Shown here one piece after another: positions 5,775-63,969 of a DNA stretch of 64,000 nt. A program made the position numbers and the translations under genes. The stretch is from contig OZ223209.1 of the NCBI GenBank assembly GCA_965140415.1, positions 2,016,001 to 2,080,000 of the forward strand, read 5' to 3'. The DNA is from Myxococcota bacterium. Its GTDB lineage: Bacteria; Myxococcota_A; SURF-8. The first letter of the stretch is position 1; each line of letters starts with the position of its first letter. A model generated the notes under the pieces. That model was not told the DNA's origin. It did no database searches and was given only the letters and a program-made list of their open reading frames with translations.

Positions 5775-7757
5775 TCAGGGGCAGATTACCGTGATGCAGT
5801 CGATCAACCCTTTTCCCGGTCCTTCGAAAAACGCCTCGCAGGTATCGGCATATTGACCGGACTCGATGATCGCCCATTGAGCGACGGCTTCCTGGTAGTT
5901 GTCGGCGGTCAGGTTATCGATGCAGGTTTGCAAATAGCCCGCTTCACAATTACCCATAATTTCACAACATTCGTTCAACAGTCCGCAATAATGGCTGATG
6001 CTGCTGTCCATGTAACTTCCTACAACCACGCACTGCTCGTTGATGCAGTGAACCTCTGCTTCCTGCGGGCAGGGATCTTCAGGCGGGCAAACTCCCGATG
6101 TGTAGGCGGTATAGTCGGAAGGATCGACGTTGACATTGGCTGCTGCACACACGCAACCCTTTGAAAACAGCTTACAATCGCTATCTTGCGCGCAGGTATC
6201 GTTCGGGTAATTGGACACGCAATGACCTTCCACGCAATCCACCGGCAGGAACTGACAGGAGTTGTCCGCCGTGCACTGCGGGTAGCTTGGAAAATGATGG
6301 ATATTCACGGGCGTACAGGAAAGGGGGTTCATCGGCAGACTGTCGCAACAACTCGATTCCGCTTCCATGCGATACGCCGTGCAATCGTCACGGGTGGTGC
6401 AGGTGTCGTCGAAGGTAATGCTGGTGCGTGTCGTGCAAAGTCCCTGGGTGTCTTCGATCAATGTGCGCGAAGAAGCAATGGCGGCTCCCAGCAGTTTCTG
6501 GTAAAGAGCTATCAAGGCGTCTTCGATGCTTTGTGAGTGAGATCTCTGTTCATCCGTGATTTCGTCGCCAGCCAAACAATAATAGGAAAAACCGATTCCG
6601 TCCTGGTACTTCGGCTCGAACAGCCATACTCTTCCCCCACCTGCATCTCCACAATCAGAATCCGAAACATCGCAAGGCAACTCGGGCAATTCCGTGTTGA
6701 GTAATTCCACCAAGTCGTCCCAGTCGGCAGTATCTACCCATCCCGTAACATTCGCCGGAAATCCACCGGTGCAGTTGTAATGCTGTAACTCATAGAAAAG
6801 AGTCTCGAAAATGCGAAGCGTAAAAATCTCGTATCCCTCTCCATCAAAAGACTGCTCTCTTGTGCAGTAATCACCCGAAGAGGGGCCGCCTGGATATATC
6901 GATGCATACAGAACTTCCTCGCCGATAAACCCCAATTCGCTGCGCTGCTTATGGCAGGCACTGGCACGGCTTTCCGGTTCGTCGTTCGTACCGGGAGATG
7001 GCGCCAAGCGATTGCTCTGCTGAGATTCCTCCTTGGAAGCCTGACCATCCCTATCCTGATCTTTGTACAGGGACAATGCCAGCTGCACCGCATTTTCCAC
7101 ACTGGCTAGCATATCTGCGTTGTGAGTCGCATCAACCCGTACAATGCCGTCGGTATCCGCTTCAAGTTGAGTTAGCAAACTATTTGGTAACAATACCCCG
7201 AGATCGACAAGCGCCAGCCAAAAATGGTAGGTATCCGATGAAAAACGAAAGACTTCGCCCGGAGTAAACACCAGTTGCCTCCCTAAATCCAGTTCCAATG
7301 AGACAGTTCGTCCCGCTTTCGTCATACCTTGTGCTCTAAACGTGCTGTTTTCAGGAAATTGCAGGCGCATTTGACAGAATTCTCGATCGGGGGGGACTTC
7401 CACCTGCAAACCGGGGCGTTCGTCGTCCAGAACGGACATTTGCGCCGCCTCTGTGGCTTCTAACAGCAAACCATCAGTGTCGTTGCAGGTCTGTTGATCC
7501 GGCCAGAAAACGGAATCGATGTCCAATTCCACCGTGTGCCATTCCACGGCAGCATCTTCATCGGAATCCGGAACGACATCGAAGTTCAGGAATATTGTAG
7601 CTTTAGGGTTGCCGTCTCCGCTACCGGTACCGAAAAGAACGTAGCTGCGCTGCAAGGCATCGAAGGTAATGTCGGATTTCTCCGAGCAGGCCGATCCAAG
7701 AATCAGCACTGTGCCAAGTAGCAGAAAAGTCCACAGAAATTTTGCACGATACGTCAT
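5775..7757 (-). CDS. Cys-rich lipoprotein of unknown function
   Basis: AAGGAG RBS before ATG 7757; signal peptide ending LGSAC; DQDRDG Ca-loop-like motif; C-terminal CxxDxDC-type Cys-rich repeats. Confidence 0.75.
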   Translation of the reverse strand: MTYRAKFLWTFLLLGTVLILGSACSEKSDITFDALQRSYVLFGTGSGDGNPKATIFLNFDVVPDSDEDAAVEWHTVELDIDSVFWPDQQTCNDTDGLLLEATEAAQMSVLDDERPGLQVEVPPDREFCQMRLQFPENSTFRAQGMTKAGRTVSLELDLGRQLVFTPGEVFRFSSDTYHFWLALVDLGVLLPNSLLTQLEADTDGIVRVDATHNADMLASVENAVQLALSLYKDQDRDGQASKEESQQSNRLAPSPGTNDEPESRASACHKQRSELGFIGEEVLYASIYPGGPSSGDYCTREQSFDGEGYEIFTLRIFETLFYELQHYNCTGGFPANVTGWVDTADWDDLVELLNTELPELPCDVSDSDCGDAGGGRVWLFEPKYQDGIGFSYYCLAGDEITDEQRSHSQSIEDALIALYQKLLGAAIASSRTLIEDTQGLCTTRTSITFDDTCTTRDDCTAYRMEAESSCCDSLPMNPLSCTPVNIHHFPSYPQCTADNSCQFLPVDCVEGHCVSNYPNDTCAQDSDCKLFSKGCVCAAANVNVDPSDYTAYTSGVCPPEDPCPQEAEVHCINEQCVVVGSYMDSSISHYCGLLNECCEIMGNCEAGYLQTCIDNLTADNYQEAVAQWAIIESGQYADTCEAFFEGPGKGLIDCITVICP

Positions 7758-7793: not shown

Positions 7794-8776
7794 TTTTAGA
7801 TTCAAGGTTTTATTTCGTTTTTGGCTCTTCAGTCGCATCGTCGAGCAGAGGAAAAAGCTGTACATTCAAGCGATAAGCCACTTCGATCGGTTCCGGTTCG
7901 ACGATCAGTTCTTTTACGTCGTTCAGTTGCTGCGCCAACAGTTCTTTTAGCGCCTCGGCCTGTCTGCGACTGATCGCCATGGTGATTCCGCTGATAAAAC
8001 GCCGTTGTTGCGGATAGGCTTCAATCGCTTCCGAACCGAGCCGGATCATCTCGCGATGAAAATTGCGCACTGACAAGCGGGCGGCTTTCGTCGAATCTTC
8101 CCGGTCGGCAAATTCACCGATAAACGGGTCGCGAGGCTGTAACTTACCCTGGGGATTCCTGCTCAGAAAGCCAAGCTCGATCAACCGGTTAAGTCCGCTG
8201 CGCGCCTGTCGTGGCGTAATGTGAGGTCGTAGTCGGGATGCAATCCAGGATGGATCTTCCTTGAAATCCTCAACACTCACAAGCTCCCGCAGTACCGGCA
8301 AGTACCATTGCGAATAAAACTCATGTCGAATCAGCTCCGCATTGTGCATGGCTCGTTTGCCTCCCAATCGTCGTAATTGCTCCATGATCATCTGGCGCTG
8401 CTCATCGTTGCTGGCCTGGTCCAACTCGACCAGGTGTAAAAAATAGCGGGTTTCACGGTTGCCGAGACCAAGCGCCTGCGCATAGCGTTGGGCGGCTCGT
8501 GGGCTCAGCTTGGCGTAGCCGGTTGCAATTTGCCAGAAGTGGTTGGATTTGTCGGAGTAGCCCGCTTTCTTCTGAAGGTATCGATGCGAGAAGGCGGCGT
8601 CCTGGCTGTTGTAGTCTGCGTAGATGTCCTGAAGAAATCTTTTATAGTCCAAATAATCATACGCAGTAATATTCTTTCTAAGTTTTTTCATAACATCTAT
8701 ATTCCTTTGTAATCACGAGTATTAGTCTACTTTTAATTTTGGATTGCCGTCAACATGAAAACCTTGAATACTAAAA
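7794..8776. repeat. Inverted repeat pair flanking the first TIGR02147-like gene (7794-7811 and 8758-8776)
   Basis: TTTTAGATTCAAGGTTTT versus AAAACCTTGAATACTAAAA: reverse complements apart from a 1-nt indel. Confidence 0.8.
7810..8691 (-). CDS. TIGR02147/DUF4423-like protein (putative HTH regulator)
   Basis: YLDYKRFL..FSHRYL N-terminus; FYSQWYLPVLREL; NFHREMI..EAI; C-terminal YRLNVQLFPL. Confidence 0.85.
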   Translation of the reverse strand: MKKLRKNITAYDYLDYKRFLQDIYADYNSQDAAFSHRYLQKKAGYSDKSNHFWQIATGYAKLSPRAAQRYAQALGLGNRETRYFLHLVELDQASNDEQRQMIMEQLRRLGGKRAMHNAELIRHEFYSQWYLPVLRELVSVEDFKEDPSWIASRLRPHITPRQARSGLNRLIELGFLSRNPQGKLQPRDPFIGEFADREDSTKAARLSVRNFHREMIRLGSEAIEAYPQQRRFISGITMAISRRQAEALKELLAQQLNDVKELIVEPEPIEVAYRLNVQLFPLLDDATEEPKTK

Positions 8777-8779
8777 TTA

Positions 8780-8800
8780 TCGCGTAAAATCATTACGCGA
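8780..8800. promoter_or_regulatory. Inverted repeat in leader of the first TIGR02147-like gene
   Basis: TCGCGTAA-N5-TTACGCGA centred 99 nt upstream of ATG; counterpart at 62994-63012. Confidence 0.7.
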
Positions 8801-9014
8801 GTAGATGTGCAGGAAAACTGTGGGTAAGCGGATTGACCCAAGAAACGGAGTTTTCGATGTTTTTTCCGGGAAGAAATCGCCTGAAACCTGGAATAAACCT
8901 GGTGGAAAGAGTGAAAACGAAGCGTCATTCAGTCAAAGATTGAAGACGGTTTTTTGCGAGCGAATTAGCGAGTAATATCAAGCAGATAGATCTGAAAAAA
9001 AGCACCGAAAAACG

Positions 9015-9043
9015 TTGACAGAATTTGGGGTTTGGCATATATT
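9015..9043 (+). promoter_or_regulatory. Sigma70 promoter of gyrA
   Basis: TTGACA-17 nt-TATATT. Confidence 0.75.
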
Positions 9044-9149
9044 AAGTTGATTGTTTGACGGGCTGGATAATCGACGCTAAAAGCGGATTTTCGAGAATCC
9101 GGCGCGGTTTGCTATTTTTTTGATATTCGCGACATCAAAGGATGTAGAT

Positions 9150-11696
9150 ATGCTGTTTCAGCCGAAAGAAATTCCGGTCAATATCGAAGAGGAAATGAAA
9201 GAATCCTACATGGAATATGCCATGTCGGTCATCATTTCTCGTGCATTGCCGGATGTGCGTGACGGACTCAAGCCGGTTCATCGCCGGGTTTTGTACGCCA
9301 TGTACGAAATGAAAAACTTCCATAATCAGTCGTATAAGAAATCGGCCCGCGTGGTCGGTAACGTCATCGGTAAATACCACCCACACGGCGATTCTGCGGT
9401 GTACGACACGATCGTTCGTATGGCTCAACCGTTCTCGCTGCGTTACCCGATGGTCGACGGCCAGGGTAACTTCGGTTCGGTCGATGGCGATCCCGCAGCG
9501 GCTATGCGTTACACCGAAATCCGTTTGGAGAAAATCGCGGCGGAAGTGCTGACCGACCTGGAAAAGGAAACGGTCGATTTCCAGCCCAACTACGATGGGT
9601 CGGAGTTGGAACCTATGGTCATGCCGACGCGCCTGCCCAGCCTGTTGATTAACGGTGCTGCGGGTATCGCAGTTGGTATGGCGACCAATATCCCTCCCCA
9701 TAACCTGGGCGAAGTCGTCGATGCGGTAATCCAGTTGATCGAGAATCCGGATTTGGGCGTTAAAGAATTGATGGGGGTCATTCCCGGTCCCGACTTCCCC
9801 ACCGCCGGTTTCATTTACGGGCGGGAAGGTATTGAAAGCGCCTATACAACCGGACGCGGCATTATCAAACTGCGTGGACGAGCTGTCGTCGAGCGCAATC
9901 GGCGCAACGATCGGGAATCCATTGTCGTGACCGAAATTCCCTATATGGTCAACAAGTCCAAACTGATCGAAAATATTGCCGATCTGGTTAAAAAGAAAAA
10001 GCTGGAAGGTATCTCCGATCTGCGTGACGAGTCCGATCGCGAAGGCATGCGCATCGTCATGGAACTCAAGCGCGATGCGGTCGCTGGCGTGTTGTTGAAC
10101 AACCTGTATAAGCTCACTCAGATGCAGACCAGTTTCGGTGTGATTCTGCTTTCTCTGGTCAATGGCCAGCCCAAGGTGCTGGACATCAAGCAGATGTTGC
10201 AGTATTTCATCGATCACCGCCGCGATGTGGTGACGAGGCGCTGCATTTTCGAATTACGCAAAGCCGAAGAGCGCGAACACATTTTGGAAGGTTTGAAGAT
10301 CGCGCTGGACAACATCGACGAAGTCGTCAAGACGATTCGGGCGAGCAGTACTCCCAGCGAAGCCAAGGAACGCTTGATCGCTCGTTTCGGCCTTTCCACG
10401 CGCCAGGCCCAGGCTATTCTCGATATGCGCCTGCAACGCCTCACCGGTTTGGAGCGCGACAAGATCATCAGCGAGTTGAAACAGGTGCGTGAGGAAATCA
10501 AGCGTCTGAAAGCGATCTTGGGCAGCGAAGCGCTGTTGATGGACGTGATCAAGCAGGAACTTCAGGAAGTTCGCAACAAGTATTCCGATGCTCGCCGAAC
10601 GGAAATCGTCGGCGAATCCCGCGAATTGTCGGTGGAAGACCTGATCGTGGAAGAAGACATGGTCGTCACCGTTTCGCATTCGGGCTATATCAAGCGAAAT
10701 GCCATTTCCCTTTACCGCGCACAGCGCCGCGGCGGTAAGGGAAAGACCGGTATGACCCCCAAGGCCGAGGATCTAGTGACCGATCTCTTCGTGGCCAGTA
10801 CGCACGACACTATTCTGATTTTCTCCGACAAGGGCATTGTTTACTGGTTGAAAGTACATCAAATTCCGCAGGGTGGTCGCGCCACACGCGGCAAGGCGAT
10901 CGTCAACCTGGTGCAAATGGCCAACGGGGAACACGTGGCGGCGATTCTGCCGATTCGCGAGTATCGCGAGGACTACAATGTGATCTTCGCCACCAAGAAC
11001 GGCGTTGTTAAAAAGACCAGCCTGATGGCCTATTCCAATCCTCGCAGCGTAGGCACTAAAGCCATCAACCTGGATGAAGGCGATGAAATCATCGATGTTC
11101 GCCTGACCGATGGCAGCAAGCACATTCTGCTTTCCTCCTTGAAGGGTAAAGCGATTCGCTTCAAAGAGGAAGAAGCTCGCCCTATGGGACGTGTGTCGCG
11201 TGGAATCAAGGGAATCACACTGGCCGAGAATGACCGGCTGGTTTCGATGGAAGTCTTGTCGGAAGGTGCAACCATTCTGTCCGTGACCGAGAACGGCTAT
11301 GGAAAACGCAGCAGCACCGATGATTATCGCATTCAGGGCCGTGGCGGTCGTGGTATCATCACCATCAAGACGACGGAACGCAATGGCGATGTCGTAAGCG
11401 TGAAGCAGGTCACCGACGATGATGACTTGATGCTGATTACCAACAAGGGAATCATCATGCGTATGCGAACGGCGGGTTTGCGCGTGATGGGCCGCAATAC
11501 GCAGGGTGTCCGCCTGATCAACCTGGATGCGGAAAGCAAGGTGGTGTCCATCACCAAGTTGGCAGAGCAGGACGACAAAGCCGTTGATGGTATTGACGCC
11601 AAAGCGGACGGGTTCGAAGAAGAGCCGACACAAGAAGAGACCGAGAGCGCACAAGGTGAAGAGACGGATCCGAAATCGACTGATTCCAAAGACTAA
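9150..11696 (+). CDS. gyrA: DNA gyrase subunit A
   Basis: [32 protein letters not shown]; GyrA-box QRRGGKG; acidic tail; AAGGA RBS before ATG 9150. Confidence 0.98.
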
Positions 11697-62993: not shown

Positions 62994-63012
62994 TGTGTAG
63001 GTAAACTACACA
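62994..63012. promoter_or_regulatory. Inverted repeat in leader of the second TIGR02147-like gene
   Basis: TGTGTAG-N5-CTACACA centred 100 nt upstream of ATG 63103. Confidence 0.7.
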
Positions 63013-63102
63013 ATAATGTGAGAATTGTCAAACTTTGTTCTTGTAATAATTGAAAATCGGCAATACGATTTAGCTAGTGATAACAGAGCGAAAGAACGAG
63101 TT

Positions 63103-63969
63103 ATGCGTATAGGCAAGAAACTATTGAGTGTGTATGAGTTTACGGATTGCGTTGACTTCCTTCTTGCGACTTATCATGCTCGACACAACGAAGACCCGGA
63201 TTTCTCGTATCGCTACCTTCAAAAACGAGCGGGCTATTCAAGCAACAGCAATCATTTCTGGCAAATCCTGACGCGGCGCATGGAACTGAGTCAACAGGCC
63301 GCCAGGCGTTATGCCAAGGCCCTGGGGTTATCGGCACGTGAGCGGCAGTTCTTTGCGATCATGGCGTTGATGAACCAGGCCAAAACCGATGAAGACCGAA
63401 ACCAATACTACCAGCAGCTTAGACAATTTTCAGAGTTCAAGAACCGGGCGCATGGCGTGGACCTTCGTTATGAATACTACGAGAAGTGGTATTACCCGGC
63501 TTTACGCGCGCTGGTGACCTTGGATGGATTCAAGGAAGAAGCAGGCTGGATGGCGCGTCAGCTTTGCCCGGCGATTACCGCCAAGCAGGCTTCCGACGGG
63601 ATCGAGCGATTGTTGAAATGGGGGTTTCTCGTTCGGGACGAGCAAGGAAGATTGCAACAGGCGGACCCGTTTATTGGCAGTGTGGCTGATCGGGCCGATG
63701 ATGGCGTAGCGAAACTGGCGTTGCATAACTATCACAGGCGCATGATCGAATTGGGTTCGGAAGCCATCGAATCATTTTCCCAGAAGCAGCGCTATGTGGC
63801 GGGAGCGACTCTGGCGCTTTCGAAACGGCAGGTGGAAGAAATACGAAAAGTGACCGAGCGCTACCTTGAAGAAGTGAATGCCCTGGTGGCGGAAGAGGAG
63901 CCGATCGAAGCGGTGTATCGCTTGAATGTGCAACTTTTCCCGCTGGCTGGAATAAAGAAAACAAAATGA
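63103..63969 (+). CDS. TIGR02147/DUF4423-like protein, paralogue of 7810-8691
   Basis: FSYRYLQKRAGYS..NHFWQI, YYEKWYYPALRAL, DPFIG, YRLNVQLFPL. Confidence 0.85.
   Translation: MRIGKKLLSVYEFTDCVDFLLATYHARHNEDPDFSYRYLQKRAGYSSNSNHFWQILTRRMELSQQAARRYAKALGLSARERQFFAIMALMNQAKTDEDRNQYYQQLRQFSEFKNRAHGVDLRYEYYEKWYYPALRALVTLDGFKEEAGWMARQLCPAITAKQASDGIERLLKWGFLVRDEQGRLQQADPFIGSVADRADDGVAKLALHNYHRRMIELGSEAIESFSQKQRYVAGATLALSKRQVEEIRKVTERYLEEVNALVAEEEPIEAVYRLNVQLFPLAGIKKTK

Follow-up and report, generated by a model that had tools for sequence, protein, structure and literature searches.

A conserved 19-bp palindrome upstream of TIGR02147/DUF4423 genes in a Myxococcota bacterium, a probable DNA operator of the adjacent regulator

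The 64,000-nt stretch of DNA analysed here (the window; positions 2,016,001 to 2,080,000 of contig OZ223209.1, assembly GCA_965140415.1, from a Myxococcota bacterium) carries two paralogous genes of the TIGR02147/DUF4423 family, designated A and B, each of which is preceded by a short inverted repeat with 7-bp arms and a 5-nt spacer (7-5-7). Comparison of the upstream regions suggests that this repeat is a DNA operator for the homodimer of the adjacent TIGR02147 protein, paralogue-specific and autoregulatory, a reading to which we assign a probability of about 0.65; very probably the repeat is an element of the DNA and not of an RNA. In the proposed mechanism the 19-bp palindrome, with its A/T-rich spacer, would have the predicted transcription start about 72-73 bp downstream of it and the first T of a sigma-70-like -35 box 37-38 bp away on the same side, and a homodimer of the TIGR02147 protein whose gene follows would bind there. 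The paralogues would each recognise a half-site of their own and regulate the operon to which they belong, consisting of the regulator and a secreted lipoprotein, with no cross-talk between the copies. Positive autoregulation, either via contact with RNA polymerase or via DNA bending, would be favoured over repression.

The inverted repeats of A and B are both complementary at 7/7 positions. A sequence-only reading of the window had placed them with their centres 99 and 100 nt before the respective ATG codons, and this was confirmed. The arms differ between the two genes at positions 1, 3 and 7, and direct reading of the sequence bore out the claim that all three differences are compensatory, each change being mirrored on the opposite arm. 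The gapless alignment of the two upstream regions proposed in the same reading also stands: its register gives an ungapped identity of 52/110 over the last 110 nt, against 25-38/110 in 12 other registers, and the blocks ATAAT.T.AG.ATT, AAT..AAAAT and CT.GTGAT.ACA.AG, as well as the terminal GTT-ATG, are all present at equal offsets. The degenerate 19-mer YGYGTAR-N5-YTACRCR, which covers both sites, has exactly two matches in the 5.98-Mb genome, namely the A and B sites, while by our own arithmetic about 1.4 occurrences would be expected by chance genome-wide. Of 1730 other upstream regions in the source genome, 53 (3.1%) contain a perfect 7-5-7 repeat, and they show no spacer preference. A chance resemblance between the A and B repeats is unlikely.

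Homologues were collected from 40 related genomes, a species-genome collection, metagenome contigs and 16 further paralogue loci, yielding 96 distinct upstream regions, 68 of them non-redundant at no more than 70% protein identity. The A/B clade, comprising proteins at least 40% identical to A, is represented by 17 upstream regions, all of which align at the repeat in a MAFFT alignment. Consensus-based automatic site finding mislocated 7 of the 17 palindromes, and the MAFFT alignment and offset profiles were relied on instead. Across the 17 sequences, 88.2% of the 119 arm cells pair (G:T counted as pairing), and five of the seven pairs change on both sides. The covariation on whose significance the sequence-only reading had made its proposal depend is pronounced: its score was reached by 0 of 500 shuffles, and the signal collapses in slid registers. 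Because of this pairing, the two-sided changes, the result of the shuffles and the collapse of slid registers, the alignment indicates that the symmetry of the repeat is under selection. The half-site sequence YGTGTA is itself conserved in the A/B clade, beyond pairing alone, and the flanking bases are not conserved. One A/B-clade homologue, L023 (G002:C20), has an in-frame TGA together with a degraded palindrome, at most 4-5/7 complementary; possibly it is a copy in decay, in which gene and operator are being lost together.

The position of the repeat relative to a predicted promoter is also kept. The trinucleotide TTG, with which the -35 box would begin, has its first base 34-35 nt beyond that of the right arm, that is, 37-38 bp from the palindrome centre, in 15 of the 17 orthologues (background 0.53 per offset), and a TAnnnT motif follows 23-24 nt after TTG in 11 of the 17. 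An A/T-rich stretch lies between the palindrome and the -35 box. In the orthologues 29-34 nt separate the end of the -10 box from the start codon, which gives a predicted 5' untranslated region (UTR) of about 26 nt and places the centre of the repeat near -72/-73, outside the transcript; the predicted promoter would put the transcription start about 26 nt before the ATG. The second of two interpretations offered by the sequence-only reading was a paralogue-specific dimeric operator abutting a -10-like ATAAT. Its first part is supported by the comparative evidence, whereas the ATAAT next to the repeat was rejected as a -10 box, since TAnnnT occurs at that offset in only 4 of the 17 orthologues. 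The coordinates of these features are collected in Table 1.

Table 1. Predicted genes, promoters and proposed operators of the TIGR02147/DUF4423 loci (A and B in window positions, C and D in genome positions)
Feature	Position	Strand	Remarks
Gene A, TIGR02147/DUF4423 protein, 293 aa	window 7810..8691	-	family profiles, structure model
Palindrome of gene A, CGCGTAA-tgatt-TTACGCG	window 8781..8799	-	proposed operator; centre about -73 from predicted transcription start
Predicted promoter of gene A, sigma-70-like, TTGACG, 18-nt spacer, TAGACT	window 8724..8753	-	promoter scan; first T of -35 box 37 bp from palindrome centre
Predicted 5' UTR of gene A, about 26 nt	window 8692..8717	-	contains AAGGA; predicted start 7 nt after -10 box
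Secreted Cys-rich lipoprotein-like gene directly after A	window 5775..7757	-	likely start codon the Met ahead of the signal peptide, some 52 nt past the stop of A
Gene B, TIGR02147/DUF4423 protein, 288 aa	window 63103..63969	+	family profiles
Palindrome of gene B, TGTGTAG-gtaaa-CTACACA	window 62994..63012	+	proposed operator
Predicted promoter of gene B, TTGTAA, 17-nt spacer, TACGAT	window 63041..63069	+	8/12 consensus matches; TTG 38 bp from palindrome centre
Predicted 5' UTR of gene B, about 27 nt	window 63076..63102	+	start inferred
Paralogue C	G000:C1:2394893-2395780		C/D clade
Paralogue D	G000:C1:4125209-4126109		C/D clade

The source genome, a single 5.98-Mb contig, encodes four TIGR02147 members above the family cut-off, namely A, B and the more distant C and D. 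The sequence-only reading had proposed to inspect the upstream regions of the other TIGR02147 genes of this genome and its relatives, and C and D proved to carry a palindrome in the same promoter geometry. The four paralogues present four different half-sites in one geometry, CGCGTAA, TGTGTAG, CGTTCAC and CGGTAAC, and relatives with five, six and eight paralogues likewise have a different half-site for each copy. When 26 proteins are placed on a maximum-likelihood tree, protein clades and half-site classes match, and the residues around the third helix of the N-terminal helix-turn-helix (HTH) domain shift with the operator class, for example S-N-H-F-W-Q accompanying YGTGTAR, S-K-S-H-L-K-M-V accompanying CGTTCAC and N-N-Y-L-K-M-I-I accompanying TGAAAAC; in these two comparisons the operators were extracted by a rule that misplaced the site in one row or more (L029) and gave five rows at 5/7 that resemble chance picks. 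L035 and L007 fall in one group with protein A (support 97/94 and 90/93), and L036, L032 and L058 in one with B (95/92). Since each of them clusters with its own orthologues, the tree identifies A and B as old paralogues, each with orthologues in other genera.

A genome-wide search allowing up to two mismatches to the four symmetric operators returned 12, 3, 18 and 15 sites, where by our own arithmetic about 19 would be expected, and therefore revealed no excess. Apart from the sites of A and B themselves the genome lacks the A/B pattern, which fits a local, self-directed site. One additional C-type palindrome, with one mismatch to the symmetric site, was found at G000:C1 ~1617052-1617070 (~2053-2071 of locus L119, minus strand). 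It is located 38 bp before a promoter-like site (TTGTCT-17-TACGAT) upstream of another secreted lipoprotein-like gene, and represents a candidate trans target of paralogue C, the sole site from this search that looks meaningful.

Both proteins are clear members of the family. The TIGR02147 profile (NCBIfam 'Fsuc_second') scores 202.1 bits for A and 202.8 bits for B, with a curated cut-off of 50, and PF14394 (DUF4423) scores 111.3 bits for A (residues 119-282) and 105.7 bits for B, with a gathering threshold of 30; the two proteins are 47% identical. The AlphaFold2 model of A, built from 53 aligned sequences (mean predicted local distance difference test, pLDDT, 91.4; predicted template modelling score 0.83), consists of an XRE-type HTH domain (residues ~14-98), a winged helix (~115-198) and a C-terminal dimer interface (209-285). 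Residues 14-98 resemble the HTH domains of HigA, DdrO, the P22 c2 and 434 repressors and C proteins (Z 6-8.3), with a Foldseek probability of 0.98 against DNA-bound HigA. This likeness to the XRE family exists at the level of fold only: no Pfam HTH family matched the protein at E up to 10, and a PDB-sequence profile search gave weak matches only (HigA, E 0.6; C.BclI, E 1). Residues 115-198 resemble the winged helices of ArsR and MarR proteins (Z 6-7), and SlyA appears in the PDB-sequence profile search at E 0.025, while the DUF4423 part resembles the uncharacterised structure 4g6q (Foldseek probability 0.89). No match at E of 0.001 or less was obtained when either the first, low-confidence model or the final one was compared with the PDB using Foldseek.

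The modelled homodimer scored 0.73, while the best of three controls scored 0.00; three runs agreed in at least 94% of contacts, and the pLDDT of the partner was at least 80. In calibration, 20 of 30 proteins whose solved structures are same-chain pairs attained this mark, as did 1 of 23 solved as single chains. The model supports, but does not demonstrate, homodimerisation of the TIGR02147 protein via residues 209-285.

Each of the four paralogues is followed, as the next gene downstream on the same strand, by a gene for a large, secreted, Cys-rich lipoprotein-like product. About 230 aa at the N terminus form a domain common to the proteins encoded behind A, B and C (24-31% identity, E 1e-9 to 1e-34), so that the duplicated unit is the whole regulator-lipoprotein cassette; the protein after D matches the one after A weakly (E 1e-6). 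The same arrangement is found across phyla. At 61 of the 63 loci with enough downstream sequence, an open reading frame of at least 100 aa starts between -56 and +220 nt from the regulator stop, and in 23 of these loci it overlaps the stop by 4 nt. By eye, most of the downstream frames open with a signal peptide, a Cys and a G-x-G-S-x-x-G-N-P-like motif, and a crude lipobox pattern flags 24 of the 63 loci. The gene order suggests that the controlled unit is probably a regulator-lipoprotein operon. On its other side gene A is flanked by the divergent gyrA gene (window 9120..11696, plus strand), ahead of which there is a near-consensus promoter-like site (TTGACA-17-TATATT, 11/12 matches, window 9015..9043, plus strand), about 80 nt before the gyrA start.

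The geometry seen at A and B extends beyond their own clade. Perfect 7-5-7 repeats are present in 13 of the 68 non-redundant upstream regions, against 1.19 +/- 0.97 in dinucleotide shuffles (maximum 4) and 1-5 for other spacer lengths. A palindrome of at least 6/7 combined with TTG at +37/38 occurs in 19 of the 68 (shuffles 0.77 +/- 0.87, maximum 4; six other offset pairs 1-5). Among the 57 repeats of at least 6/7, 19 have TTG at +37/38 and 7 have it at +27/28, with a background of about 1.3 per offset as estimated from the offset counts. A promoter-anchored profile peaks at the same two distances, at 37/38 (16/50 at 5/7 or better) and at 27, one helical turn closer (7/50). The shorter distance is that of an orthologue of A and B, L040, in which the -35 box lies 27 bp from the palindrome centre. 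The 27-bp spacing also characterises a group with the operator GTTTTC-N5-GAAAAC (L069, L078, L079, L081, L082, L087 and L099).

In the C/D clade (loci L003, L004 and relatives) the palindrome is centred 73 nt ahead of the ATG and TTG is found at +38; the -35 box (TTGC..) begins 35 nt before the ATG, with a T-run ahead of it, and the -10 box ends only ~6 nt before the ATG. This short distance suggests that the C/D-clade mRNAs are probably leaderless, with the palindrome at -73, and the repeat could not lie in an mRNA made from that promoter. On direct reading, five Fibrobacterota loci (L045, L046, L047, L049 and L052) and three loci of other Myxococcota (L013, L030 and L108) display two or three separated GTACTCA-like half-sites, direct or inverted, which may represent a different operator layout inside the TIGR02147 family. 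On the comparative sequence evidence the operator architecture is well supported in this Myxococcota order and clear in some other groups, and for the family as a whole it is unestablished.

Within the operator reading, activation is, in our judgement, roughly twice as probable as repression. Positive control is favoured by the fixed, helix-phased position of the site (-72, or -62 in some relatives), by the weakness of the -10 boxes and by the extra C-type site ahead of a lipoprotein gene. The same protein and the same site could instead form an autorepressor circuit, in which repression would come about by looping, by oligomerisation or because an UP element is blocked. Small regulators most commonly repress their own genes, and many XRE-type and MarR-type relatives are repressors, as judged from the names of the structural matches. 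However, the palindrome stands clear of the -35 box, the -10 box and the start, and its helical phase is kept whether it lies 37-38 or 27 bp from the -35 box. In addition, the -10 boxes TAGACT, TACGAT and TAGGAT are of the poor kind met in activator-dependent promoters, and the extra C-type site repeats the geometry before another lipoprotein gene. Negative control by the cognate protein is unlikely on these grounds, and it is the most probable of the alternatives to a self-activating operator.

A second alternative retains the DNA site and assigns it to another regulator, for instance a CRP/Fnr-type protein or other global factor. The A/B half-site, written as GTGTA...TACAC, bears a loose likeness to CRP-family sites, and the TIGR02147 protein is a putative binder. 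Against a foreign binder stand the four half-sites of one geometry, each located beside one paralogue of the source genome, and the way in which the half-site classes track both the protein clades and the HTH helix. Moreover, the absence of further A/B-pattern copies in 5.98 Mb and the site numbers at up to two mismatches, which do not exceed expectation, are unlike a global regulon. We regard control by another factor as rather improbable.

The other interpretation offered by the sequence-only reading, a structured leader RNA of about 110 nt, found no support: the predicted promoter is downstream of the repeat, the consensus fold holds only the 7-bp hairpin, the remaining folds of A and B differ, and Rfam gave no match. 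For such a leader to exist, the repeat would have to be transcribed from a promoter farther upstream, its hairpin acting in stability, attenuation or protein binding. The pairing itself suits an RNA stem, 88% of the cells being paired with G:U allowed; the 119 arm cells comprise 94 strict Watson-Crick pairs, 11 G:T, 6 A:C and 8 others. Single-sequence folding forms the hairpin in both the A and B leaders (z-scores -1.5 and -2.9), and the hairpin of gene A is followed by TAATTTTAG and was listed as terminator-like in a scan. However, G:T is not clearly in excess over A:C, so that the alignment displays no clear RNA-specific wobble surplus, the half-site sequence is conserved as well as the pairing, and a 'compensatory' pattern is equally expected of a symmetric DNA site for a homodimer. 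The promoter-like motif, conserved at its fixed distance downstream of the repeat in 15/17 orthologues, and the leaderless C/D clade, with its repeat 73 nt upstream of the ATG, also argue against transcription of the repeat. Outside the hairpin the A and B folds have nothing in common, and RNAalifold applied to the whole upstream region returned a single 7-bp helix (-5.67 kcal/mol) and no multi-helix structure. A search of window positions 8400..9200, covering the A region only, against Rfam with E up to 10 found no match reaching the gathering threshold; the best ones score 17.2 and 15.9 bits where 48 and 53.4 are required, with E-values of 1.1 and 9.8, which is chance level. The hairpin of gene A was also rejected as a terminator, since gyrA upstream of it is divergent, leaving nothing to terminate, and most orthologues have no T-run. 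A transcribed leader element is thus very improbable.

Finally, it is scarcely credible that the A/B similarity is a functionless remnant of duplication or a product of chance: A and B are indeed paralogues and whole cassettes were duplicated, but the proteins have diverged to 47% identity and fall into different old subclades with orthologues in other genera, and the repeat has been kept in 17/17 and its promoter distance in 15/17 orthologues while the flanking bases have not.

Several observations weigh against the proposed autoregulatory operator. The predicted promoters are consensus matches only; that of gene B, with its 8/12 matches, is under the threshold of the promoter scan and was unreported by it, and an unconstrained choice of the best promoter fell on other sites in several orthologues. 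The arms of several orthologues are only 5/7 complementary, and the 11 G:T cells among the 119, against 6 A:C, would be tolerable in an RNA stem. In the wider family, 39 of the 68 representatives have no palindrome of at least 5/7 at +37/38, and related genes are not independent. A gene and its upstream region are inherited together, so the agreement of half-sites with protein clades is by itself no proof of the binder. The position near -72 is compatible with activation and, in our analysis, suggests it, but is no demonstration of it. The identity of the binder and the sign of regulation are both what we infer.

The proposed arrangement resembles several known systems. The controller (C) proteins of restriction-modification systems, such as C.BclI, C.Csp231I and C.AhdI, are XRE-type HTH dimers which bind a palindrome, the C-box, upstream of their own promoter and autoregulate their own operon; the N-terminal domain matches the folds of C.Csp231I (Z 6.5) and C.BclI (Z 6.2). 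Transcripts of C proteins are often leaderless. Unlike the C proteins, which are single domains of ~80-100 aa with boxes that abut or overlap the -35 box, the TIGR02147 proteins have ~290 aa with an added winged helix and a C-terminal dimer domain, the palindrome is one and lies near -72, and there are no restriction-modification genes. The lambdoid, 434 and P22 c2 repressors offer another parallel, as HTH dimers that read two-fold symmetric operators of 14-18 bp and autoregulate, and whose recognition helices and operators have diverged in step; P22 c2 and the 434 repressor are among the fold matches (Z 6.5 and 6.0, respectively). However, phage operators overlap the promoters and activation takes place from about -42, whereas here there is a single site near -72, without any sign of tandem operators; the arrangement of domains is also different, and the TIGR02147 genes belong to chromosomal paralogous cassettes.

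In its placement the palindrome is similar to class I activator sites, which are two-fold symmetric and helix-phased ~62 or 72 bp upstream of the start (here a predicted one), with an A/T-rich stretch leading to the -35 box; the class I sites of CRP are at -61.5 or -72.5. It differs from the CRP case in that the putative binder is outside the CRP family, the arms are of 7 bp with a 5-bp spacer, and each site is private to one gene, with no global regulon. HigA-type antitoxins and DdrO, the dimers of which bind palindromes of their own operons, are the best fold matches of residues 14-98 (HigA with a root-mean-square deviation of 2.7 over 78 columns; Z 7.4-7.6), but, in contrast to HigA, there is no toxin partner, the downstream gene encodes a secreted lipoprotein, and membership at the sequence level is missing (E 0.6). 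A likeness to HetR of filamentous cyanobacteria was also considered. HetR has a similar length (~290-300 aa) and, according to PDB entry titles, an N-terminal HTH and a dimer on a palindrome. A relationship to it was rejected: the first, low-confidence model had HetR in the top Foldseek row (E 0.07) and matched its hood domain with Z 6.5 (residues 204-282), but with the final model the probability fell to 0.12 and the TM-score to 0.19, and there is no sequence similarity. As the autoregulatory operator of a dimeric HTH regulator is already known as a type, the palindrome represents no new kind of mechanism.

A full-text literature search on the family names returned, in the texts it reached, no described cis-element or function for TIGR02147/DUF4423, in agreement with the sequence-only reading, which had stated that no such element was known to it. 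The search found the family named only in a protein list, where Bd3700, annotated as 'DUF4423 domain-containing', is among the Bdellovibrio proteins that rise during growth in prey (PMC12546842).

On a broader scale, and as a possible but doubtful generalisation, TIGR02147/DUF4423 may be a multi-phylum family, spread over Myxococcota, Fibrobacterota, Bdellovibrionota and others, whose cassettes of one regulator and one secreted lipoprotein activate themselves and are insulated from one another. They would share a common 7-5-7 grammar at -72 or -62, often with leaderless transcripts, the third HTH helix would set the half-site, and the co-transcribed lipoprotein may return a signal from the envelope or from outside the cell to its regulator. 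If this were true, the target of every paralogue would be readable from the genome. With the proposed operator, a large paralogous family without an assigned function would gain a role that can be tested at the bench, that of dimeric DNA-binding regulators with predicted private operators and target operons, and its natural regulator-operator pairs, with one geometry and different half-sites, would offer a ready system in which to study how paralogues avoid cross-talk.

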